A stretch of DNA of 56,754 nt, filler included, from Basidiobolus ranarum (Eukaryota), in the NCBI GenBank assembly GCA_040143965.1. It is 2 parts of 2 records of this genome, joined end to end, with 100 filler letters (N's around TTAATTAATTAA, not from the genome) between each part and the next. Parts side by side here need not be neighbours in the genome. Positions count along the whole stretch, not along the records: positions 1 to 28,380 come from JASJQH010000116.1; 1 more part is not named here. One strand, given 5' to 3'. Below, piece after piece: positions 1 to 28,480 of this stretch. The first letter of the stretch is position 1; each line of letters starts with the position of its first letter. The notes under the pieces were generated by a model that had not been told where the DNA came from, searched no databases, and was given only the letters and a program-made list of their open reading frames with translations. The position numbers and the translations under genes are program-made.

Positions 1-579
1 ACAATTTTTGGACGCCAATCTTTTGGTCCAAGCCGTTTGTCAAGAGAGCCTTTAGTTTGTCTGAAAATCCAACTTACTGAAATGCACTAGTAACTTTGGA
101 CTTTAGATTTTCGATTTCATCCATCCATCCTTTTTTGGTCAGTCGACTAGTGATCAATTCATCCATTTACTCCACTAGTGATTTTTGTCTACAAAATGTA
201 CTTGTCGTCCCGGTATTTCGATTCCATACAGTAGCCAAAACTTGATTAAACTCCTTTCCTTTTTTCGCTTAACAATCCAAATGTTGAGGCTTTCCTCTGC
301 TCCTCCAATGGCCGCTCGAATCACGGTGCCTTTTGGTTTCGCGCTGATTAGGGTCCGTGAATTCGATTATGACTTTTTCCGGGGGACGCGCGCGGAACAT
401 GCTCGCCGAATTCTGCAAAATTACTGCATAACCCCCTATGGGTATACCTCTCAGGTGAAATCCTGACTGAGCCAAGAGTCGATCTGGCGACCTCACTCTA
501 GCTCCTTACTATCCTAACCACTTGGCTATAGATTCTTGATATTGCTAACTCTTCACTCGGTGAAGTTGGCCAGCCATAC

Positions 580-854
580 ACCATACCCTTCGACTTGTCC
601 ACATACCCTTCGACCATATTATAATACAAACCATTATAATAAATATATTGTATACCATACCCCTCGACTTGTCCACCATACCCTTCGACCGTATTATGAT
701 ACAAGTCAATATACTATACCATACCCTTTGACTTGTTCACATACCCTTCGACCATATTATAATACAAACCATTATAATAAATATATTGTATACCATACCC
801 TTCGACTTGTCCACCATACCCTTCGACCGTATTATGATACAAATCAATATACTA
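580..854. repeat. Tandem duplication of a 138-bp unit (2 copies) built from CATACCCTTCGAC-like cores
   Basis: ACCATACCC at 580 and 718 start near-identical units. The core recurs 8 times. The ORF 536-949 simply reads through the 46-codon repeat. Confidence 0.9.
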
Positions 855-956
855 AATATACACTCTATACCATACTCCTTGGCACACATACTTTTCGCAT
901 GTCCCTAACCCATTACCATCACCTTCAAACCGCTGCAATACATACATAATATTAAG

Positions 957-1000
957 TGCACATTGAGGAATCGAACCTCAAGGTCAAACCATTGTGTGCA
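957..1000 (-). other. tRNA-like relic (acceptor-like stem plus T-arm/B-box; no D or anticodon arm)
   Basis: Minus strand reads TGCACA-caatggtttgacc-TTGAGG-TTCGATT-CCTCAA-TGTGCA. The termini pair, and a canonical TTCGATT T-loop sits on a perfect stem. Confidence 0.5.
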
Positions 1001-1415
1001 TATATCCATAACCCCGAATGGTCTCCCTCCCTTCGAATGTGAAAGTAGGTTGAAAGCCATTCACAAACAACTTAAATTACAAACACAGCGCAAGTATGCA
1101 GAAAGTGGCCTCCACCCAACTAGTCCCTCAGAAACTTAGGTTACAGGTAGATGCCACTCTACCCGACTGATTAGTGACATAATAAGCGCTATATAAGAGT
1201 AGAAATTTGCAGATATGGCAAACTTGTGGTTTTCAGTATGATTTATAGTGGTTAAAGGTTTAATTTAGAACCTGTACTACACCATATCTCCTTAGCCACT
1301 ATAACCATTACCTCAGGTACTCAAAACAGCGTATACCTGCAACACTGAATATATTTCATTAACTATTTAAAAAATTAGGGTTAGGGTTACCTTAGGGTTC
1401 TTTCATGATTTATGC

Positions 1416-3120
1416 AAAAGACTCATCCTACGTGTTTTCAAGCAGTCGCTTGTCATATGCGCACAGGAATGGCATTTTGGAACGTAGATATTCATTTCAT
1501 AGTCAACAATACAGGCGGCAGTCAAATATATATACAAGTAATAATACGTTTACTAGTGCAATTGTGGGAATATAGGATATTAATGAGCTCAAAAGATTTT
1601 CCGACTATTTTTTTTTCACCAATTTTTTCCGAAATCGGTACTATAAAAGAGAAGGGTTTGCATCAATGAAAAATTACGACTGTACTTTACAGGATTATGT
1701 ATATAGTACATTCCCAGTCTTTGTTTCCCAACAAAGACGCTAATACCAGGCTGGTGGATGAGTAGTAGTGCGCTGTCTGTAAAGGGAAGTGTGGAATTAA
1801 TTCGTTTGGTTCTTCGGAGCCTCTGAGTATTTCCAGTTGATGATCTTGCCGGTTGATTATTCCAACAACCAGGCGAGGACGGTTTGCACATTCTGACAGC
1901 TTGTAGTTATCTTAATATCATAAAATTATCAAATCATTAGAGATATATACAATAATATCCTACTCAAATATGCTATATCTTAGTTTAATATGTGCCGCTT
2001 TAACTGCGAAAGATTATCCTCCAACTGGACTTGGCTTCTACAACTTCTCGTTGTCAAGGTGCAACTCTCCACCAAAAAGATCAGGCTGGGTTGATACTTT
2101 ACGTCAAAATTTCCTTGATTGTTGAAACTCACATCATTCAAATTTTCATGGTTTCTAGTATCGGAAACAGAAACTGGCTATTACTTGTTGTTCTGATTAG
2201 AGAAAAGATACTTAAGCAAGTAAAAATGATGTGACTAGTAACGCGGAAGACTAATTTAAAGTTAGTACCCAAATTGTCAGTACCGACTGTCAAAATGACT
2301 CGTGCTACGTACGTTCAAGTATATTACTCGATGTGTGCACACAGGAATGGCACAACTTCACGTAAAGACTATCTTCATTGTCATCGTGAAATTCGTTAAT
2401 AGATATATATTTACGGTGAATTTGTTTGATGTTTAAGATTATGGGATTGCATTGTACAAGTATGCTTATGTGAGAGATCTGACAGTAGATCGGGCTTTGT
2501 AAATATAAATTATCTCGATAGAAAGTAAAGAAATATTTGATTATTGTTATTCATCGAAGCATTCATTGAATGCTCAATTACGTTATCTGATTGGTGTCCT
2601 CTGCCATCGCATTTGGATTAGACTAGTGTCATTTTAGCACGTTTGTTCTGCCTAATCATTATTTATGAAGGAATTAAACGAATTGTTCATACTTCGGAAC
2701 TTTAGATGGTTTATTGCTTCATGCTTGATATTAATGAATATGAGGTAGTTATATGGTGAGAGCAAATGTATTAGTAAGTCACAAATCATATTTCTAATCA
2801 CACCTACTACACCTTGAGCCTGAGGATTCGGGCTCTTCAGGTTCTTCTGGTGAAGAAGGCTGTTCTTAGCAAAGACGGTTATATCAAACTTATAACATTG
2901 AGTTATTGATTAATGTGATGTAGTCTATTAATTTATTAGCATATGGTCTGATCTTACACTAATCTACCGAGTACTTGGTTTTCATAAATATCAGTACAAG
3001 ACTGATGGTAGTACTGACGGTAGCATCAACAAAATGACTCGTATTTCGCTTATTCAAGTATATTACTCAAAGAATGCACACAAGAATGCCACAACTTCAC
3101 GTAGAGACTATCTTCATTAT
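1416..3120 (-). pseudogene. Three diverged copies (~1416-1506, ~2292-2385, ~3031-3120) of a decayed Cys/His-containing coding module
   Basis: Shared + strand motifs GACTC...TTCAAG...CACAGGAATGGCA...CGTAGA. Minus-strand translations are YVPKCHSCAHMTSDC, YVKLCHSCVHTSSN and YVKLWHSCVHSLSN, with stops in the flanks. Confidence 0.5.
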
Positions 3121-5204
3121 TGGTAGTAAATGCATATCTGAATGTAAATGGAGGGTGAAACTGCTTGATGCTTGAAGTTATGATCAGGTAACGCTTGTTG
3201 AGGTAAAGATTGACCAAGAGTATTTGCTAACTGTGCGGGCAGATCTAAGTGTATAGCGTTCGATGAACCTGTACCAGCTATCCCCTGTACATCGTTACTT
3301 GCGTTATTGAACCCTGAATCTGAAGCTTGAGATAGTAGAGGAGCTTCAGAGTTAGAATCATCTGCTGGTGGTGTTGGAGCAATTTCCATGCCTTCCTCAG
3401 CATCCTATGGCATTTCATACACTCATTTCATACACTCCGGGTGTATTACTATCACCACTTTACCCAGAATCAAAAACTTTTCCTTGGGCAGATTTTGCCT
3501 TCCACTTCAAAGCTAGGTCCCGACTGATAATTGAGGTCAGAATTGTCCTGGCCATTGATATTTGTACTGCTAAAAACACCAAGGTATGGGCATGACGCTC
3601 AACGCTTTTGCCATTCCTGGCCTTGTGTTTGAGTTTTGTGGCTTGTAATCGGCTCTTAAACTGAGTGGTAAGCACTGTGGCTGAGATTTTAGTGCATACC
3701 CCATAATACTCCCACGATTCCTATATCATAAGTACTTGGTCTTTGAGTTCGCTCTGAGCCAACCATATATATTTTGTAAATATTTCAAGGCAAACTGAAA
3801 GCACATAGATATTCATGGACTATATGCTGCTGAAACTTCATTTCAACTTTGTCAATATACATTTATTCTTAAAGTGCAGCTATGAGAACATATATCAAAT
3901 GAAACAAAATTAAAGTATGAGCAAAGATTCAAAAATCTCATAGGTTACAAACTAATCAAAAGGGTATACAAGTTGTAAGGTACATGATAACAATCTTGAT
4001 TATGATTCCTCTTCATTAATGGAGTCAAAGTTCAGAGGTCTGGCCTTTGGAAAATTTGGGCAAGCCCAATTCTTCCCATATACTAGTAACTTGTGTATAT
4101 TGTGATGGAGGGGTGTACATGGGGGATTACATCTGGATGAAGAGGCCCAATGCTACAGTAAGCTAGTTAAGGCGGCACTTAGTAAACTAGCTATGCATAG
4201 CAGTCTGGACAGTATTAAGCATACGATAGCTAGTCAGGGTAAACTATTTGATACTGTTTGCCTGCCAGTATTGCAAGAATGTGTGGTTTACTAAATCTGA
4301 ACATGTATGTACTTCGGCGACAGTTACACGAAAGAACCGACATCAATGGTACCATAGGGTCACGACTGGGTGATACAGAATTCAATCAGTGCTCGTATTT
4401 ATGAGGGAATGAGAATTTCATACGTCGAGTGTGGCATCGCCCAGAGTTGCTGTGCTGATTGTGTACCGTTCGCAAGACTCGCTGGCTGTGTAGAGATACT
4501 ATTCAGTGATGCAGTGGACCTGATCAACGATGTATTGAGTGATGAAACAATGAATATATGCCATACATCTGCGTGTAAAGGTGAAGAGTGGTTGACAGTA
4601 TATACGCGTGGCTGTGATGTGCAATCCAATTCTTTTAAATGGATGGTGTCGTGCTGACCACGTGCGCTCAGGAATGGCAGGGTCGGTGGGCTGGTATTAC
4701 GTATGTGGCAGATATAATATAGGCGGAAACATCAAGCGTGTATTTGCAGCAACAGATGTTCCAACTGTTTCTGTAGACAATTTAATTTTAGTGTGCAAGG
4801 TGCTGAACCTGACGGAGGAAATTCCTGATACGCTGGTGACAATGTAGTTGATGAAGAGTGGCTACCCACCAGTGTTGAGTCAATGGAGGTGTGGTGCCCA
4901 GTCAGCTTCAAGTGATTCACTTCACAATAAGCGCACGCAATTTACGCACCTCCCAAAGCATGCTAGTGTATGTGGCTTGAACGAATTATGTGATGATATT
5001 AGCAACGCGGCCCTGAATGAGGAAGAATTATGCCTCCACAAGTCATTGATTAATATTCCTATACATCAAGAAGAAACAACTTGCGAGTGTGTATCTGGTT
5101 CGCATGATGTAGAATGCAAGACACATACAATACGCATTATTAAATAAGGATATAGTGGCTTCAAACGAATGGGATCTCTGACGATGATGTAGTGATATAA
5201 GCAT

Positions 5205-5278
5205 GTGATATTTGCCAGTATATTCCTTAAGTGATATTTGCCAGTATATTCCTTAAGTGATATTTACCAGTATATTCC
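5205..5278. repeat. 26-bp tandem repeat, ~3 copies
   Basis: GTGATATTTGCCAGTATATTCCTTAA at 5205, 5231 and 5257 (third copy is partial, with one mismatch). Confidence 0.9.
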
Positions 5279-5894
5279 ATCTCATTTGGTATGCATAACC
5301 CTAACCCAGCCAATCTGTAGTGTTATTATGTATGTTATACTTTTCAATAGATTTATTATCATCCATCTTATACTGATCAACAAATATTTGGAAATTTATT
5401 CATGGTTGATTCACCATTCGGAAATTACCGTGACAATAGTCTATAGTCTATATCAGTCACAAGAATCATAACACATAATCTCTTATTGACAAGCCTTTAT
5501 CTCAGGTGTGACTATTTAGTTTTCTCTTGGATACGGTGGCTATCATGCTGGAGAACGATTCAAGATAATCCTTTAATATAAGATTCAGCTTTGTAAATGC
5601 ACAAAGCTGATCTAGTCGCCCACGGTTTTCAAGATATCCTTTGGAAGTAATGTCTAGTTTCCAAGACACCTTTCCTACTCTATATTATTCCAGTCCCATT
5701 ATCCATATGGAATGATCGGAACATTCAATGATCAAGTTGTTTTCGCTATATGTTGTAATATTAGCTTTGAAATATTCTGTGAACCAGGATTAGCATTGCG
5801 GATATACAAATAAGCTATTCATATAAATCGACAATTATTGATAAATATAAATTCAATTGAAATTCTGTTTATTAAAGAATTAGGCTAATGATGA

Positions 5895-6974
5895 TTATAA
5901 TCTGGCTAACGTCTTATGAGCTTTAGCAAATGTGTTATTCGATACAGCAGCAATTGTTGATAACTCAAGAGCCAAGCAAAAAGAGGCTACAGTCTCTGCA
6001 AAAGCCATTTTACGATCCACTCCTAAACAATCGAGCATTTTTAAGTGTTTCGACTGATCACTATACTGTGTTCCTCCACCCACTGTACCGACAAGTAGTG
6101 ACGGAAAGTAGAGCGACATGTGCAGATTATCGTCATCATCGATATCCATGGATAACTGACTCCATGAGCTCTCAGCAATTGAGCCTGCATCTTGGCCGCA
6201 CGAAAGATACATCGCCGCTAAGATGTTAGTGGAGTTGATGTTCATTCCTAGAGTACTCGTTCTGATTGAGGATTGCATAGCCTCGATATAGAGTCTGTAA
6301 ATATCTCTAGGATGGACATTGAGATACTTGAGACATGCGTCTTTGTTTACAATTCCCCAGCTTCTAACTTTAACTCCACGAGTAGTAAAGGATCTCATAA
6401 GAGATAGCTTTTTTTCAGCCGTAGTATTTCCTTCTACATAGCTCTTCTCGAATACAAACCTGCTGTTTAATGTTTTGTTGGTCAATAATTCATCACAAAC
6501 TTTCTGTGTCGCGATTGTAACAATATTTTGTCCAGCGGCATCACTGGTAGTATATGTAAACTCCAAGTGTACAGATCTAGCGAAAATATACGGCTGGATT
6601 TTAATGAGTTTCCCGTGGTTAGTAGTGCTTTCGGCTATCTTCTTTAATTCAGTAAAGTGTTCTTCGATCCAGTCAGCAAATTCTAACGTTAATTTGGTCG
6701 AAGACAGCACGAAAACAGGACTCCGAGATATCTGTTCCTCGTAAGCTCTAGCTGATATTCCACCACAAACCTCGAACACTTTCACCCCGCGAGAGCAGGA
6801 AGCAACTAGAGTAGCTTCGGTAGTGGCCAATGGAGCTTTAACTCTTTTTTTCTGGTGAACACCATGTATGGTCAGTGGCGGTGTCGCTCCAACCGGTACT
6901 TTAGTATATCCTATGAAGTTTTCAATGCGGACTTGCTGGTCAGCACTATTCGTATTGGAAGTAGATTCGTACAT
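5895..6974 (-). CDS. Class I HMG-CoA reductase, catalytic domain only, intronless
   Basis: Motifs ENFIGYTKVPVG, PLATTEATLVASCSRG (catalytic Glu), DAAGQNIVT, EKK (usually DKK), CGQDAG (Asp), VGTVGGGT and AKAH (His). The ORF is open from 7055, but a TATATAAG ~35 bp upstream favours the ATG at 6974. Confidence 0.92.
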   Translation of the reverse strand: MYESTSNTNSADQQVRIENFIGYTKVPVGATPPLTIHGVHQKKRVKAPLATTEATLVASCSRGVKVFEVCGGISARAYEEQISRSPVFVLSSTKLTLEFADWIEEHFTELKKIAESTTNHGKLIKIQPYIFARSVHLEFTYTTSDAAGQNIVTIATQKVCDELLTNKTLNSRFVFEKSYVEGNTTAEKKLSLMRSFTTRGVKVRSWGIVNKDACLKYLNVHPRDIYRLYIEAMQSSIRTSTLGMNINSTNILAAMYLSCGQDAGSIAESSWSQLSMDIDDDDNLHMSLYFPSLLVGTVGGGTQYSDQSKHLKMLDCLGVDRKMAFAETVASFCLALELSTIAAVSNNTFAKAHKTLARL

Positions 6975-7082
6975 ATTATGTTGGCCTTTTGAGTTTGAAA
7001 ATGTCCTTATATAGGTAAGTCCCAAACGGCCAAGTTTATTGCAATACTCACCCATACAAAATCAACATTAAAGCACACCTGT

Positions 7083-8609
7083 AACCTCCATGGTCATCAT
7101 TGGTACTGTTCATAATTGATATTGCACATAATAGTTATAATTGATATTCTGGAACCTCCGCGGTCATAATTGTTATTCATGTTCCAACCGATCGGTTTAC
7201 TATTATCCAACCATGTCTAATGGATACCATCATACTTACTACCCTTGACTGGTTTTCACGCGCTACGTCACTGACTATATCATCAACATTATTTTAGCCT
7301 GCAACCCCTAGTTTCTTTTGGAAAGTCCACTAAACTTGGGCAATGAAGTCTAAATACCTAAATAGAGGATCTGTATGTATAGGTCAGGATGTCAGAAAAG
7401 CTAACAATACTATATCATGACGATCGTAGATAGGGAGTAGTCTTATTTCATATTGACATTAAATAGGCTTTCGACTTTGTCTTCGGTTGTGACTTCACCG
7501 TCATAGATCGGTGTGTTGTATGGTCTCATATGATCGTCTTCCTATTTTATCGAAGTGAATTAACACTAGAATCAACTTACCTAAAATAAAGCAAGATCAG
7601 TATCACCAATGAAATTTAATACTCTATTGAATCAGGCTTGACTAAAACACTTAGTCTTAGGTTGAATGGTTCGAATGATGCACACTTAGTCTTGGGTTGA
7701 ATGGTTCGAATGATGCAAAGTGTATGTATTTCGACTGATGGAGTAAGCAATTTCATACAACCTCATGCAACAAAAAAATGAGGTCTGATTCTTTACCTTC
7801 ATGGTTATAATTGATATTCTGGAACATCCATGGTCATGATTGGTATTCTAGAACCTCCATTGGGCTTAATTGGTACTGTTTATAATGGATATTGCACATA
7901 ATTGTTATTCACGCGTTGTCGCTGATTATATAATCGACATCATCTTAGGCTGCACTCCCTAGTTATGTTTGGAAAGTGCGGCAAACCTGAGCAATGAAGT
8001 CCAAGTAGCTGAATTCGTGACCTAACTACATGATTTGTATGCATAGGTCAGTTAAAGCAACGATACCATATCATGATATTGATAGGTTTTCGATTGTGTC
8101 TTTGATCGTGGCTTCACTATCGTAGTGGTATGTTGTATGGTCACTATCATAGTGGTTTATTGTACGGTCTCACATGATCATCTTAGTATTGTATCAAAGT
8201 GAATTCAAGGTGAAAAGTGAGTTAAAATCCGAATCAACTTACCTACGATAAATCAAGATCAGAATCCAACTTACGTACCATAAATCAAGATCAATATCGC
8301 AGATGAAATATAATATAATAATAATAATAATAATTCTATCGAATCAGACTTAACTAATACACTTAGAATCATTAGGCATTGGTAATTTGTGCATTAGGTA
8401 TTAGCGATATATAATCGAAAGTGGCATAATTGACAACATCACGAATGGATACCAGCCATATATGTATGTATACATTATGGATGAAAATTCTCACACGACC
8501 TATCAATCAGCCACTTTTATCCCGCCTCTGGTACTAGAATGGGTCGGAAGATGCATGGCGTATGTATTTCGACTGATGGAGTAATCTTCTTAATACAACT
8601 TAGTGCAAC
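7083..8609. repeat. Diverged direct duplication (copy A ~7083-7771, copy B ~7797-8609) filling the divergent intergenic region
   Basis: Collinear shared blocks GTTATAATTGATATTCTGGAAC, GCAATGAAGTC, GAATCAACTTACCTA and GTATGTATTTCGACTGATGGAGTAA. There is also a 35-bp internal tandem at ~7647-7716. Confidence 0.85.
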
Positions 8610-8813
8610 TGTAAAGACATTCATGTAGCTCTTCTACTCTAACTATGGTAATGATCAGTGGCAATGGGATACAGAATTAATAGGTACTACGCTTTCAACA
8701 GTCATATACAAGGATTTGAAGTTCTTAGTTCCTAGTTTGCAGGCTAATGACTTTATATATAAGGTGGACACCTGTACACTATAAAGATAACTTTAACCTT
8801 CTTGAAACCTCCG

Positions 8814-9083
8814 ATGAAATATACCACTGGATTAGTTGCTCTTTTCGCTGTCGCCACAGCCGTTGAAGGTGTATTGGTTGGCCAAACCACTCAAAATGGT
8901 GTCTCTTACTTGTGGAATTGCCCTGGTAACCCCATACCTACCCTGCAAGTGATTTGCGCTAACAACCCTACCAGCTGCACCTTCAAAGCCCCCATGAACT
9001 TCAATTGTAAAGTATTGAGTACTTGTAACCTATTAAGTGGTGAGATGCTGGGTCAAGGCTGCACTATCATGCCAAAAAAATAA
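8814..9083 (+). CDS. Small secreted cysteine-rich protein (89 aa, 6 Cys)
   Basis: Signal-peptide-like MKYTTGLVALFAVATAVEG. TATATATAAG lies ~60 bp upstream and AATAAA directly follows the stop. Confidence 0.8.
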   Translation: MKYTTGLVALFAVATAVEGVLVGQTTQNGVSYLWNCPGNPIPTLQVICANNPTSCTFKAPMNFNCKVLSTCNLLSGEMLGQGCTIMPKK

Positions 9084-11269
9084 TAAATAAAGTAAATCTG
9101 GTTAGCTATTAATTCTTTTTTTCTAACATTGAAGTAAATGGTGATGGAAACAATATGAACGCGATATTAGTAGTAAATAAAAGGTTTTCTTCAGAGATAT
9201 ATATATATATGAGAGTCAAGAGCTCAATCCTTCATTATCAGACAGTAATGGGCATATAGTCCAAATCTTACCCAATACGGCAAGGTCACTTCAATACTCT
9301 GCAATCAAGCATCTTGATGTAAGTACAGTGTCAAGGGGAAAAGGCTGGAGAAGAATATGGGCGTATAGGTTATAATTTCAAATGAACACAGACCAGCTTA
9401 TTGAATCCATCAGTCTTCTTAATTGTATCAACCATATTGAAGAACTCCTCTCCTGCAGAGTGAGTTAACTCTTTACGAATATTCTTAGTGCATTAGTGAG
9501 CTAGCACAACAAAACCTCTTATGTAGCTTAATACTTTAATTCAAGTCAAACTGAGATTGGTGACATAGATACTATACTATACCAATACCTTTGGATTGAA
9601 AACTGATGCTATGAATACAATATCAATGGCAGTGTTTCATATTCTTGTGCAATAGAAATGCATATATCTATATGAATACTGCTTAGACTTCTATTGAATT
9701 TATGCTGTATATATGTTGTTTAAAATACAAATAGTGTAAGATGGAGTAGAGATATGTACTATTGACACTATTGCAAGCACCATCAATGATAAAGCATCCT
9801 AACATTTTGAGTGGATTATCCCCAGGATGAGTATCATAATTGGAATTCTTTTGCCATCATAGTGAACACAATAACACTTTATCAAATCTGATTTGAGCGA
9901 TCTGGGGTGGCGACAGAGGAATATAGAAGCAAGAATCATACTCGGTAAAATCTCGGCGAACTCTAGCCATTGTAGTAACAATCCTAGCCGAATTTTGGGA
10001 TTAGGGTTAGGCATTAGAGTCTCGGCTTTCGGTTGTACTTGAACTGACAGCTGAGTTTGACAAAATTAGCATAAGGATTTACTAGAATTATATGTACATA
10101 CTATTTGGTAATTTTTGCATGTGATTGTAGTCGTCATCCTTTGGAGCTGATAATCTAAGACGGCTGTTGCTTATTAACCAAGCAAGTTGAAGCAGAAGAA
10201 TATTTATCCTTGTATATATCCCTTGTATAAATGGACTGTTACAATTAATCCAGAGCGGCCTGTACAATGCTTGAGCGTGCAATACCTATATATGGCTCAT
10301 TACGAATATGGTATATATAGTAAATCCAAGCTTCGTATCTCTTTCAACAACAATATGATTCTCAGATTTCGATCAATAATAATAAACTAAATAGCCTTAG
10401 TAATGAAAGTCCTACCTAAATTAGTCAGATATCTACTTATGGTATTAATTTATTGATCTGCTTACTAGAGAATTAGACCACCTGTTTAAAGGTCTTCCAT
10501 ATTGTAGATCTCATTCAACTTTGACCATTAGGAAAATAAAGAATAAGATAGTAACTAAAGAGAAGTAGATCATAATATCACAAGTATTGAGAAAGACTAT
10601 GCTAGCATGCAATTCATACTGACGCTGAAAACTGATTCAACTGTTCATCTGTACATTGTGATGACTCAATAAGGAATAGGCAAAGAAGATTCATGTAGTG
10701 CATTGTTTATCTTCATTAACTAATGTACAGTGTACGAATTGTTTACACTTCTAGTCATCTTCTTATAGGATTTGAGAAATAGTCCATTGAATCAGTATGT
10801 GCACAATAGAGCTGTATAAAGGAATTCTTTTGATATACTATGATATATGCTTAGCGTTTCCCTCAAAACAAAGAACACCTGTTGTACAAGATAAGTAATA
10901 CTATACGGCAATATGTATGCATTTAATTGTGCTAATTCAATTCTATGAGAACACAAAGGCATTTTTCATCTTTAAAGTTTGTAGTACCAATAAAATCATG
11001 TCAACAAACTATATGTAAGATCAAAAGATAGTCGGCGTGTACAATAGTGCCATATAACTCTCTCCTCAAACTGCCATCGATTTTGTGCAAGACACTGAAA
11101 GTATCTTAAACTATGAGATATAATACCTGGCAATTTTAACAGCTGTCCAAGCGGAGTGAGGATATTTTATGTTTATATATGCCAACTATAATATGAACAC
11201 TTTCTTCTGCCCCAATAGTTCCAAATTAGATGTGTTCCATCATGAGAAAAAAATTCATCATGAAATCTT

Positions 11270-11455
11270 CTGCTATCATTGTAATGGATGATTTCTCTAA
11301 CATGATGACAAGAACGTTGATATAAGAAAGTAACTGCTATCATTGTAATGGGTGATATAAGAAAGTAACTGCTATCATTGTAATGGGTGATATAAGAAAG
11401 TAACTGCTATCATTGTAATGGGTGATTTCTCTAACATGATGATATAAGAAAGTAA
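11270..11455. repeat. 35-bp minisatellite with variant units
   Basis: TGATATAAGAAAGTAACTGCTATCATTGTAATGGG repeated ~3 times, plus flanking partial copies. Confidence 0.88.
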
Positions 11456-12779
11456 ACGGGAGCGGGAAATTCCACAAATCCTGTACAATGAAAAATCATT
11501 AAACAAAATTGACTAATTTATTCCATTCAGTTAAATTGTGGTTTAAATGATTTCTTTCTCGATTGTTGATGTACACAGAACTATAATACTCCATGTCAAG
11601 AACTACTAATGTCTTCGGGAATATTGTACAATTGACACGATAAACAACCTTTTAGGTTAACTTTTAGATGAGATGGCGATATTACTCTGACCAATGGTTT
11701 AAATATTACAATAGCCATAACATGATAGCACCCATATGTAGCATCTTACTTATCAAGTAAACTATTCCATCATTGTTTATGAAGCCTATGCCCATACAAA
11801 GCCAAAGTCGGCCTATATCATCTCAGATCAACTAAGTTGTGCATAAGGTCCATGTGAACGATGATATTTTTCAAAGAAATGACAAGTGAGCAAATATCCA
11901 AACAAGTGAAAATGTTTTCAGCCATGTTTATGCTCCCTAGTCAAGGTGTTCAGGAGTTTCACAGCCCTATGGCCACACAGAATGTGGTTACTTCATCATG
12001 CAAAACCCTGTAGTGCGACTACTACTGGGTACTAGTTTTCTCAAGACTTTCATTTGTATTTGCTATATCTACCAATAATGCGAATCCTACTTGTTTCCTG
12101 TTTACACTTGTGAAGTTTTACAATGAAAAAAAGAACCACAAAAGTGAACACGAAGAGACAATCGTGGAATATATCCGAGCAATGATATCAATCAACATTC
12201 CTTAATAACCCCAAAATCAACTATAGCACTATTATTTAAGATGATCACCAATACTTCGCCAATGAAAAGCTAGGCTGTACTCCAAATGCCCACATTGCAC
12301 GATGTCATCAGTACAAAAACAGGTTCATGGGGATCTGAGCCAGTTTTTAGATGTCCTCCAGTACTGCTTGTAACACGAGTCACATTTCATCTGCCTAATT
12401 CATCTTTCATGAAACGTATGTTCTGCACACATATTGCTCTGGAATCTTGTAGTCTCACCTACACTCAGAATAGTGTGACTTGATTTCATATATTCTACTC
12501 TATTGCCAATCATATAATATACTATATTGACCATCAGGTACTAACAACACCGTAAAGCCACCAATTTGTCCCAATGAGCATCATTTATTACTTGTACACA
12601 CAAATGTATCTCAGAACACACAACTTCACTTATAGGCATTAAAGTTACCCCAAAAACCCCGACCTCGTGCGAGGCATCAACAAGCCCTAAGACTCAGTCC
12701 AAGACTCCACGCACATTCTTAAATAGAGAAAGTTCTGGTGATCAAATTGAACTTCTTAATACATTCTTTGTTTTAAGCA

Positions 12780-14354
12780 ATGCACTCCCTCAAAGCCCTT
12801 ACCCTTTTGGGTACACTATGCTTCTCGGTGCTAGCCAATGCTCATAATACTCCGTTCAAGATTGAGGAAGCCTCTATCCGTGACATTCAAGCTGCTTTTG
12901 ATAAAAAAACTCTTACATCTCGTCAATTAGTGGAATGGTACGTCAACCGTATCCACGAGCATGATCACCACTACAATTCTGTCTCGGAGATCAACCCTGA
13001 TATCTTCAAACTTGCCAGTAAAGCCGATGCTGAACGTAAGGCTGGCAAAAAGAGAGGTCCTCTTCATGGTATCCCCATTTTACTGAAGGATAATATTGCT
13101 ACTGGAGATAAGATGCATAATACTGCTGGTTCTTTGGCATTATATAGTGACGCATGTAAGCCAACCAGGGATTCCACCATTGCCTCGAAGCTTCGCAAAG
13201 CTGGTGCTCTTATACTTGGTAAGGCATGTATGTCAGAATGGGCCAATTTCCGTACAAGTGATGGCTCAGGTGCTGAATATAAAGACGCTGATGGCTGGAG
13301 TGGTCGCTGCGGTCAAACTCGCAATGCTTATAACATCACTCGCTCACCCTCTGGATCCAGTGGTGGACCTGCAGTTGCGGTTGCATTAAATTTTGTAACT
13401 GCTTCTATAGGTACTGATACTGATTGCTCAATCACCGCCCCTGCCGCTATCCATGGTCTTGTCGGTATTCGCCCTACAGTTGGTTTGATCTCTCGTGACA
13501 TGGTTATTCCAATCGCACATTCACAGGATACTCCAGGACCTATGGCGAAGTCAGTCACTGACGCAGCTATCATGATGGAAGTTCTTGCTGGACAAGATTC
13601 TCGCGATCCTTTAACCAACATGCCACCTGTTCCCAAAAAACCAGTCAAATATACGAATTATTTGAAGAAGAATGGCCTACGAGGTGCTCGTATCGGTATC
13701 CCTCGTCATGTATTTTGGGAGAAATGGAATCGACCTGAAGAAAAGGCCGTAGCTGAACAAGCCATCCAAAAGCTTAAAGAATTGGGAGCAACCATTGTTG
13801 ATCCTGCTGATATTCTCACCATTGATCGTATCAGTGATATGAGTTACGGTTTAGGTGGTTTGGAATATACTTTACTTTATTATGAATTCAAACAAGATAT
13901 TCAAGCTTATCTCGCCAAATTGAAGAAGCAATGCCCAATGAAATCCCTTTCTGACTTGATTCAATACAACAAAGATCACGCCGATGTAGAAATGCCACTT
14001 TTCAAACAAGAGGTATTCGAGATATCACAAAACACCACCAACTTGAACGATCCTTTCTATCAGAAGACCTTACGACTTGTCCGTAAATTAAGCGGCTCTC
14101 AAGGTATTGATGCTGCATTCCGTAAGTACAAGTTGGATGCCATGTTCGTCCCAGTTGACTGGGCATTCTTCCCACCTCAACCTCTTGCTATGGCCGGTTA
14201 TCCACAGATCAATGTTCCCATTGGGACGGATGATGAGGGAGTTCCTTTTGCCGTTAGTTTCTATGCTCCTGCCTATAGCGAGCATAAATTGATCCAATAT
14301 GCTTATGCTCTGGAGCAAGCTACCAAGGCTCGTAGACCTCCTACACTCTTATAA
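12780..14354 (+). CDS. Secreted amidase-signature family enzyme, intronless
   Basis: N-terminal signal peptide; GPLHGIPILLKDN (Lys), SPSGSSGG (cis-Ser), GTDTDCSI (nucleophile Ser), GIRPTVG and QDTPGPM. Confidence 0.93.
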   Translation: MHSLKALTLLGTLCFSVLANAHNTPFKIEEASIRDIQAAFDKKTLTSRQLVEWYVNRIHEHDHHYNSVSEINPDIFKLASKADAERKAGKKRGPLHGIPILLKDNIATGDKMHNTAGSLALYSDACKPTRDSTIASKLRKAGALILGKACMSEWANFRTSDGSGAEYKDADGWSGRCGQTRNAYNITRSPSGSSGGPAVAVALNFVTASIGTDTDCSITAPAAIHGLVGIRPTVGLISRDMVIPIAHSQDTPGPMAKSVTDAAIMMEVLAGQDSRDPLTNMPPVPKKPVKYTNYLKKNGLRGARIGIPRHVFWEKWNRPEEKAVAEQAIQKLKELGATIVDPADILTIDRISDMSYGLGGLEYTLLYYEFKQDIQAYLAKLKKQCPMKSLSDLIQYNKDHADVEMPLFKQEVFEISQNTTNLNDPFYQKTLRLVRKLSGSQGIDAAFRKYKLDAMFVPVDWAFFPPQPLAMAGYPQINVPIGTDDEGVPFAVSFYAPAYSEHKLIQYAYALEQATKARRPPTLL

Positions 14355-28380: not shown

Positions 28381-28480
28381 NNNNNNNNNNNNNNNNNNNN
28401 NNNNNNNNNNNNNNNNNNNNNNNNTTAATTAATTAANNNNNNNNNNNNNNNNNNNNNNNNNNNNNNNNNNNNNNNNNNNN
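28381..28480. other. Assembly spacer: N run containing the six-frame-stop linker TTAATTAATTAA (28425-28436)
   Basis: 44 N, 12-bp palindrome, 44 N (100 bp in total). Confidence 0.95.

Follow-up and report, generated by a model that had tools for sequence, protein, structure and literature searches.

A short HMG-CoA reductase (HMGR)-like protein of Basidiobolus ranarum might be a peroxisomal matrix enzyme of bacterial ancestry, in which the HMGR fold is used to reduce an acyl-CoA other than HMG-CoA, giving a primary alcohol or an aldehyde. Judging from sequence and model, we place the probability of this reading at about 0.5. A preliminary description of the gene had proposed three roles for it: extra mevalonate supply, statin resistance, or reduction of another acyl-CoA. 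The last was the best supported in our analysis; extra mevalonate is kept as a rival, and statin insensitivity is a predicted property of the protein and not likely its purpose.

The gene is intact and located on the minus strand of the window (the whole stretch of 56,754 nucleotides analyzed, in which filler joins two contigs; Table 1). Its open reading frame runs from 6974 to 5895 and encodes 359 residues and a stop codon, with no internal stops. Pfam HMG-CoA_red spans nearly the whole protein (E 7.7e-86) and no other domain was detected, which bears out the earlier claim of a catalytic-only enzyme of ~359 residues. An AlphaFold model (pLDDT 87) had 6hr7 as its top Foldseek match (TM 0.82) and class I enzymes fitted best; Pfam, alignment, model and Foldseek all gave an HMGR fold with the cis-loop. 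A longer start at an in-frame ATG at position 7055 was rejected, as this codon is absent from the other two intact copies of the gene. This, together with a TATA-like box kept in the three intact copies and NCBI models of 359 residues for two paralogues, supports the start codon at 6974. We searched for upstream exons encoding a membrane domain and found none on the contig: there was no sterol-sensing domain, and the N-terminal 720 residues of canonical HMGR gave no significant match to it. The protein thus appears to be outside sterol feedback, as had been suggested. Eukaryotic genes (Myb, bZIP-like and rhomboid) lie on the same contig. No biosynthetic cluster surrounds the gene, with no ORF of a statin or other cluster in positions 1-12700 of the window, where the next long ORF is an amidase.

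Table 1. Features of the short HMGR gene and of the window (residue numbers are those of the 359-residue protein unless marked human or Arabidopsis)
Feature	Position	Strand	Basis
Coding sequence for 359 aa; catalytic domain alone, with class I HMG-CoA-reductase fold	5895..6974	-	ORF, Pfam, alignment, model
TATA-like box, ~35 bases upstream of start codon	7007..7014	-	kept in three intact copies
Catalytic Glu53 (human Glu559)	6816..6818	-	alignment
DAAGQN motif, residues 145-150, replacing DAMGMN	6525..6542	-	alignment
Glu181 at human Ser684 position (HMG-binding)	6432..6434	-	alignment; Ser684 role from available text of PMC9500038
EKK of cis-loop, residues 187-189; catalytic Lys188 and Lys189 kept, Asp690 to Glu	6408..6416	-	alignment
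Glu231 at or beside human Lys735 position; no Lys/Arg at 230-231	6282..6284	-	alignment; role from available text of PMC9500038
Arg238, candidate substitute for Lys735	6261..6263	-	fungal-clade alignment; model helix 222-239
Catalytic Asp262	6189..6191	-	alignment
Thr340 at human Leu853 / Arabidopsis Leu558, LvrA-type statin-resistance change	5955..5957	-	alignment
Catalytic His353	5916..5918	-	alignment
C-terminal Ala-Arg-Leu, PTS1	5898..5906	-	four genomic copies, family counts
Filler joining the two contigs of the window	28381-28480		only 1-28380 linked to gene

Four short HMGR copies were detected in the genome, the gene studied here and three others at 96%, 91% and 87%, the last of which is broken by a frameshift near residue 130. 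Pairwise comparison of the three intact copies gave dS of 0.20-0.49 and dN/dS of 0.08-0.09, i.e., purifying selection, and GC3 of the short copies (0.38-0.42) falls in the range of host genes (0.34-0.44). With ordinary eukaryotic genes on the contig, these values indicate that the gene is resident and under selection. The genome also contains three canonical membrane HMGR genes of the DAMGMN type, so that the separate canonical enzyme whose presence was to be checked does exist; a Pfam sterol-sensing match was found in two of the three. These genes likewise lie in long single open frames (1047, 1117 and 890+ codons), and thus missing introns say nothing about origin. The description of the short gene as intronless is correct insofar as it is a single ORF, but it does not distinguish the gene, and we rejected it as a sign of transfer.

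The closest relatives were examined in the best 120 of 4497 matches. The top matches were two Basidiobolus entries, and the remaining named ones among these 120 were all from Pezizomycotina, at no more than 47% identity (~40-47% for the short HMGRs listed from this group). No other early-diverging fungi were present among the named matches listed, in which the Basidiobolus gene forms the sole non-Dikarya branch; conservation across the phylum was likewise not seen there. A genome scan with the single protein as query gave no match. In a 352-row tree all 118 fungal relatives formed one clade, and in this and a quick 82-row tree the Basidiobolus copies were sister to the Pezizomycotina clade and the pair was nested among bacterial DAAGQN proteins. 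A careful tree of 38 rows supported the fungal pair (100/100) and the ascomycete side (99/99), separated the wider clade from the canonical HMGRs of archaea and eukaryotes (100/98), and showed a long stem of the fungal clade (0.9 changes per site). Grouping with canonical eukaryotic HMGRs was rejected (AU p 6.6e-41, the eukaryotes being two canonical sequences of B. ranarum itself). For two placements inside Pezizomycotina, chosen once the tree had been inspected, rejection was weak (AU p 0.039 and 0.019) and is made soft by long branches.

The proposed horizontal acquisition was therefore upheld as to bacterial origin, and short accessory HMGRs of filamentous ascomycetes, which had been mentioned there, were found as the sister clade. 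A private transfer from a bacterium to this host did not hold, because one origin is common to the Basidiobolus gene and the Pezizomycotina subfamily (100/100). Direct recent transfer from a named bacterium was also rejected, as no close donor was found (best bacterial identities 31-40%). The trees would fit a single event in which fungi acquired the gene from the bacterial DAAGQN clade, followed by gain of PTS1. Afterwards the gene may have been kept in the Basidiobolus lineage and Pezizomycotina with wide loss elsewhere, or moved by an old fungus-to-fungus transfer, and both fit the data alike; local duplication would have given the four copies after fungal acquisition.

The C-terminus of the protein, Ala-Arg-Leu, is common to all four short genomic copies and agrees with the PTS1 consensus [SAC][KRH][LM]. 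Strict PTS1 ends were found in 64 of 118 fungal-clade relatives versus 0 of 160 prokaryotic ORFs, and relaxed ones in 103 of 118 versus 1 of 160; in the fungal clade these ends sit on tails 1-15 residues past the last conserved motif. The Basidiobolus short HMGR is thus predicted to be a peroxisomal matrix enzyme, probably, and the term soluble, used for it before, is accurate in that a membrane domain is missing and inaccurate if taken as simply soluble. Neither the PTS1 nor the change in the HMG carboxylate site had appeared in the preliminary description.

Two Aspergillus oryzae proteins, EIT83470 and EIT73603, belong to the fungal short-HMGR clade. The available portion of a study of this organism (PMC12016551) lists five Hmg genes, of which these are the last two (FPKM <=1.1), and places AoHmgA in the ER but AoHmgB-E in peroxisomes. 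As the genes expressed throughout are HmgA and HmgB, the two proteins should be among HmgC-E, and list order and expression pattern indicate that EIT83470.1 and EIT73603.1 are probably AoHmgD and AoHmgE. In the same source, overexpression increased ergosterol for HmgB alone among the five, and fatty acids for HmgB, HmgD and HmgE. Because overexpression of the ER-localized HmgA also lowered ergosterol, this read-out discriminates poorly. It should be noted that the localization constructs appear to carry a C-terminal DsRed, which would mask a PTS1, and that the HMG-CoA synthases and mevalonate kinase of A. oryzae were also placed in peroxisomes.

Active-site residues were counted in one alignment of 3 intact B. 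ranarum copies, 125 fungal-clade rows, prokaryotic relatives and a small canonical set of 7 rows (2 fungal and 5 archaeal, plus PDB alignments). DAAGQN, EKK and the catalytic Glu, Lys, Asp and His, all reported earlier, were confirmed. We take Asp262 and His353 to correspond to human Asp767 and His866. EKK is present in the gene but is not a trait of the family: Asp instead of Glu occurs in one of the three intact copies and in 115 of 125 fungal-clade relatives, and a functional change at this position was rejected on these grounds.

The polar contacts in HMGR comprise Arg590, Ser684, Asp690, Lys691, Lys692 and Asn755, and Lys735 forms a salt bridge to the HMG carboxylate (available text of PMC9500038). 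The carboxylate site of the short protein is altered. The Ser684 position holds Ser in 7/7 canonical rows and Glu in 3/3 B. ranarum copies; Glu or Asp stands there in 119 of the 125 rows of the fungal clade and in all 81 named prokaryotic rows. At the Lys735 position, around which the alignment has a one-residue ambiguity, Lys occurs in 7/7 canonical rows and 0/3 own copies (Ile230/Glu231); 118 fungal-clade rows had 12 Lys, 10 Arg, 93 neither and 3 unscored, and 81 prokaryotic rows 6 Lys, 6 Arg, 35 neither and 34 unscored. The His752 equivalent is Asn, and the equivalents of Arg590, Lys692 and Asn755 are kept, so that overall the site has lost Ser684 (to Glu) and Lys735 while retaining Lys692 and Arg590. 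Arg238, seven residues along the Lys735 helix and in the same helix of the model, was found in 122 of 125 fungal-clade rows; it is near-invariant in this clade only and is not conserved in bacteria. The protein scored 238.8 with the equivalog model TIGR00533, below the cut-off of 441.8, compared with 474-564 for the five archaeal canonical HMGRs. The class II model TIGR00532 was unmatched (41.6 bits vs a cut-off of 260), the cis-loop being present. Since both the carboxylate site and the equivalog score fail, we do not file the protein as EC 1.1.1.34.

Of 141 prokaryotic representatives, 98 have Thr at the position of Thr340, as do 2 of the 7 canonical rows; as it is common outside the fungal clade, this Thr appears to be inherited and not a fungal adaptation. 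Other statin contacts are changed too (equivalents of Met655/657, His752 and Leu857). The Arg871 equivalent is kept, and the Arg627 position holds Asn in 3/3 own copies and Arg in 102 of 125 fungal-clade rows, with canonical rows varying. The Arg627 position is presumably that of 2'-phosphate binding, with Arg627 and Arg871 having roles in NADPH preference.

Fifty of the 80 bacterial genomes bearing relatives, chosen for complete or long contigs, were searched for pathway genes. The MEP enzyme DXR was present in 42/50. Mevalonate-diphosphate decarboxylase occurred in 7/50 (4 above the cut-off and 3 full-length matches just below), and an HMG-CoA synthase match of any kind in 6/50. All five decarboxylase-positive genomes checked carry 2-3 HMGR genes, and in two of them one adjoins the decarboxylase. 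At the 80 bacterial loci, UbiA prenyltransferase (42), a PEP-synthase-like dikinase (39) or both (37) were often found, along with an OleC-like acyl-CoA ligase (31), DUF3419 (28), a GNAT protein (26) and a membrane protein resembling phytol kinase/DUF92 (22); one HMG-CoA synthase query, run without a positive control, matched at 0/80. Metagenome loci were alike, with UbiA and the dikinase together in 40/79. Streptomyces neighborhoods contained an MFS transporter at most, and the available part of PMC13001223 leaves open the orphan HMGR of MEP-pathway Streptomyces. Many bacterial relatives are fused to an APH/choline-kinase-like domain, some in the order fatty acyl-AMP ligase, ACP, HMGR, kinase, and others to an acyl-CoA ligase, ACP or acyl-CoA-binding protein. 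Such an order would fit a route in which a fatty acyl thioester is reduced and the resulting alcohol phosphorylated. This context may not carry over to the fungal clade because of its long stem. Searches of the B. ranarum genome for the operon partners (kinase domain, dikinase and UbiA) and for the FAR C-terminal family gave no match, both without a positive control. One of 80 metagenome loci was of fungal type, with no cluster there.

In the reading that we favor, Pex5 would import the protein into the peroxisome, where a homo-oligomer would bind an acyl-CoA and NADPH. Glu53, Lys188, Asp262 and His353 would support two hydride transfers with release of CoA, the chemistry being taken as unchanged from that of HMGR (PMC13412983, available text). 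Because of the Glu at the Ser684 position and the missing Lys735, the substrate would, less certainly, lack the distal carboxylate of HMG, and it would most likely be a fatty or branched acyl-CoA; a 3-hydroxyacyl-CoA derived from beta-oxidation would be one candidate, given the retained Arg84, Glu187 and Lys189. Our inferences here concern import, the cofactor, the substrate and the direction in which the reaction runs. In favor of this reading we counted the pocket changes, the low TIGR00533 score, the bacterial MEP hosts, the operon context, the fusions, the PTS1, the localization and overexpression results reported for A. oryzae, and the lack of a PTS1 on both HMG-CoA synthases of B. ranarum. 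Counted against it were the retained Arg590, Lys692 and Asn755, an Arg238 that could restore carboxylate binding, the ambiguity at 735, the small canonical set, the long fungal stem and operon partners not found in the host. Further points against it came from the available text on A. oryzae, i.e., the peroxisomal HMG-CoA synthase and mevalonate kinase, the PTS1-masking DsRed and the poor ergosterol read-out.

It is possible, if somewhat unlikely, that the protein is a true HMG-CoA reductase with a remodeled pocket, in which Arg238 stands in for Lys735, and that it produces mevalonate within peroxisomes, outside sterol feedback, for isoprenoids or for those arms of siderophores that derive from mevalonate. 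In fungal siderophore synthesis the mevalonyl-CoA steps are peroxisomal, and the catalytic residues are retained, as are Arg84, Lys189 and the near-invariant Arg238. The reported peroxisomal synthases and mevalonate kinase of A. oryzae (PMC12016551) and the abundance of siderophore and terpene genes in Basidiobolus (PMC7466969, both in the text available) would also fit. However, Ser684 and Lys735 are changed, the bacterial relatives occur outside mevalonate pathways, three canonical HMGRs are already present and both HMG-CoA synthases of B. ranarum end in RKN, without a PTS1. Moreover, in the available account, ergosterol did not rise when the probable A. oryzae members were overexpressed. 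The retooled enzyme might also run oxidatively, supplying peroxisomal beta-oxidation with acyl-CoA from an alcohol or aldehyde, much as Pseudomonas mevalonii oxidizes mevalonate with its class II HMGR, but we regard this as unlikely. Peroxisomes are catabolic, and Asn at the Arg627 position in all own copies would be in agreement with such use, although most fungal-clade rows have Arg there and canonical rows vary too. In the accessible texts, class II enzymes catalyze the reaction in both directions (PMC13412983) and the A. oryzae members are barely expressed in standard culture, as an inducible gene would be (PMC12016551); the ligase-ACP-reductase-kinase order of the bacterial fusions is, however, reductive.

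Retention mainly as a statin-insensitive backup HMGR against the inhibitors of competitors seems improbable. Thr340 is the Leu-to-Thr change of LvrA, which gave >20-fold statin resistance in AtHMG1 (PMC9500038, available text), and other statin contacts are altered too, but the Thr predates fungi and the role needs HMG-CoA turnover, which is doubtful here. In addition, the two cluster-linked HMGRs that we checked in the available part of PMC10734572 are long genes (~3.3 kb) and not of the short type; a link to the trichothecene-like/PKS clusters of that study was rejected accordingly. Bacterial contamination or a decaying relic might have been suspected from the bacterial-type sequence, the lack of introns, the fragmented assembly and the one broken copy. 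This explanation, to which we give very little credence, is largely refuted by the eukaryotic genes on the same contig, host-like GC3, the low dN/dS between copies, the fungal nearest relatives and the PTS1.

Uptake of bacterial genes is known for Basidiobolus (available text of PMC7466969) and the subfamily is widespread in ascomycetes; the Pezizomycotina short subfamily is already catalogued and little studied. An enzyme of the HMGR fold in peroxisomes, probably acting on a different substrate, has, we think, probably gone unrecognized. DAAGQN gave no match in the literature searched, which was mostly without subscription journals or the transfer tables of PMC7466969 and in which we found no account of the bacterial origin, PTS1 or altered pocket of the clade. 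The HMG term was absent from the accessible text and two supplements of a 44-fungus transfer survey (bioRxiv 10.1101/2021.12.02.471044 / journal version). More broadly, and with somewhat less than even confidence, we suggest that the fungal genes of this type, hundreds of which are annotated as HMGR, encode peroxisomal reductases of fatty, possibly 3-hydroxy, acyl-CoA, taken once from a widespread bacterial alcohol-lipid operon. They would then have either persisted from a time before Zoopagomycota and Dikarya split or crossed between fungal phyla. HMG-CoA reductase is regarded as acting on a single substrate, and EC 1.1.1.34 is the database label for all of this clade. Should these proteins reduce other acyl-CoAs, inventories of the fungal ergosterol pathway and resistance-guided genome mining are including genes that do not belong there. 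Orphan HMGRs in bacteria with the MEP pathway (Vibrio, Streptomyces) would then gain a testable explanation, the statin-target fold a new reaction and fungi a new way of making fatty alcohols or diols, and a small soluble thioester reductase would make a useful biocatalyst. If HMG-CoA is reduced, the enzyme would let mevalonate synthesis proceed in peroxisomes without feedback and probably without sensitivity to statins.

Among known systems, class I HMGRs (EC 1.1.1.34; human HMGCR, 1dqa; Methanothermococcus, 6hr7) share with the Basidiobolus protein the fold (TM 0.82), the cis-loop, the catalytic Glu, Lys, Asp and His, and the equivalents of Arg590, Lys692 and Asn755. It differs from them in having no membrane or sterol-sensing domain, in DAAGQN, the PTS1 and a score far below the TIGR00533 cut-off, and in Ser684 to Glu, loss of Lys735, His752 to Asn and Leu853 to Thr. 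LvrA, the self-resistance HMGR of the lovastatin cluster, is of the long, canonical type and is a paralogue of the housekeeping enzyme within a statin cluster, whereas the Basidiobolus gene belongs to another clade and has no cluster around it; they share the Thr at the Leu853 position (PMC9500038, available text). The Basidiobolus protein belongs with the short HMGRs of Pezizomycotina, including EIT83470.1 and EIT73603.1, forming one clade with them (100/100) and sharing the catalytic domain only, xAxGQN, Glu or Asp at Ser684, Arg238, Thr340 and PTS1-type ends, and those of A. oryzae are reported to be peroxisomal (PMC12016551). In its available text, that study regards them as normal enzymes of the ergosterol pathway, and their origin and substrate are not discussed. 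In contrast, the Basidiobolus gene comes from an early-diverging fungus, and is sister to and not within the sampled clade; its protein has a tail that could not be shorter (ARL) and Asn at the Arg627 position, with EKK found in two of the copies. The bacterial DAAGQN clade (Vibrio, Streptomyces, Gammaproteobacteria, Planctomycetota, Myxococcota and others), of which we found no characterized member in the literature searched, has the same motif and pocket changes at 31-40% identity, and the fungal clade nests inside it. Its members lack the PTS1 and a conserved Arg238, and fusions to kinase, ligase or ACP domains are frequent among them; they occur in a lipid-type operon, the tested genes of which were not found in Basidiobolus (queries without a positive control). 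FAR1-type peroxisomal fatty acyl-CoA reductases and the R domains of CAR also reduce thioesters. FAR1 resembles the proposed enzyme in conversion of a thioester to an alcohol with two NADPH at a peroxisomal site, and CAR resembles the bacterial relatives in the layout of ligase, carrier and reductase, but their folds are of the SDR type and unrelated to the HMGR fold of the Basidiobolus protein.

The HMGR-like genes of bacteria often lie in a conserved operon, which was detected at L169:7755-16998, at the loci L031, L123 and L133 and at many further bacterial loci. Besides the HMGR-like gene, its members encode UbiA, a PEP-synthase-like dikinase, DUF3419, a phytol-kinase/DUF92-like membrane protein, GNAT and an OleC-like ligase, and at some loci MMPL and a CDP-alcohol transferase are added. 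This operon has apparently not been described so far, and it looks like an alcohol-lipid pathway. Most of it also accompanies the DAAGQN gene of an archaeal genome bin (locus L152, genome G001), in which a class II-like HMGR is present separately. A further non-mevalonate context is that of a Sinorhizobium plasmid (L203:4896-14592), where an HMGR-like gene (30% identity) is found with genes for acyl-CoA carboxylase, indolepyruvate oxidoreductase and MmgE/PrpD.

Two singleton proteins from sequencing-run assemblies, P0259 and P0224, both end in AKL. In the trees they fall in separate bacterial subclades, and the closest named relatives of P0259 are from Streptomyces. These proteins may represent independent eukaryotic acquisitions with PTS1.

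In B. ranarum itself, the fourth short HMGR-like copy (L004:3-1065, on contig C3583) is 87% identical, and a frameshift at about residue 130 disrupts it. It has the motifs DAVGQN and GKK and retains the C-terminal ARL. Other features of the window are listed in the table. Positions 28381-28480, which consist of two N runs and a short AT linker, are the join between two contigs, and genes past 28480 are unlinked to the finding. No Pfam match was detected for the cysteine-rich ORF, and DNA resembling it is present on at least four other contigs. The non-coding duplication is also carried by contig C11374.

Features of the window around the short HMGR-like gene
Feature	Position	Strand	Remark
Amidase, 524 aa, single frame	12780-14354	+	signal-peptide-like start; nearest long gene to the HMGR-like gene
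Small cysteine-rich ORF	8763-9080	+	signal-peptide-like start
Diverged non-coding duplication, 470-base, 64%	7131-7604 and 7801-8266		upstream of the HMGR-like gene
Short tandem repeats	577-880; 11270-11442		

In A. oryzae (proteins P0570, P0573 and P0574), the accession of one short HMGR adjoins that of a fatty acid desaturase-cytochrome b5 protein that looks truncated, and a fused record additionally carries a TXNDC17-like thioredoxin. The HMGR fold also occurs within larger fusion proteins (among P0184, P0262, P0347 and the loci L084 and L145), arranged as fatty acyl-AMP ligase-ACP-HMGR-kinase or acyl-CoA ligase-ACP-HMGR. The ligase-ACP-HMGR fusions are laid out similarly to carboxylic acid reductase, except that the reductase part has the HMGR fold.
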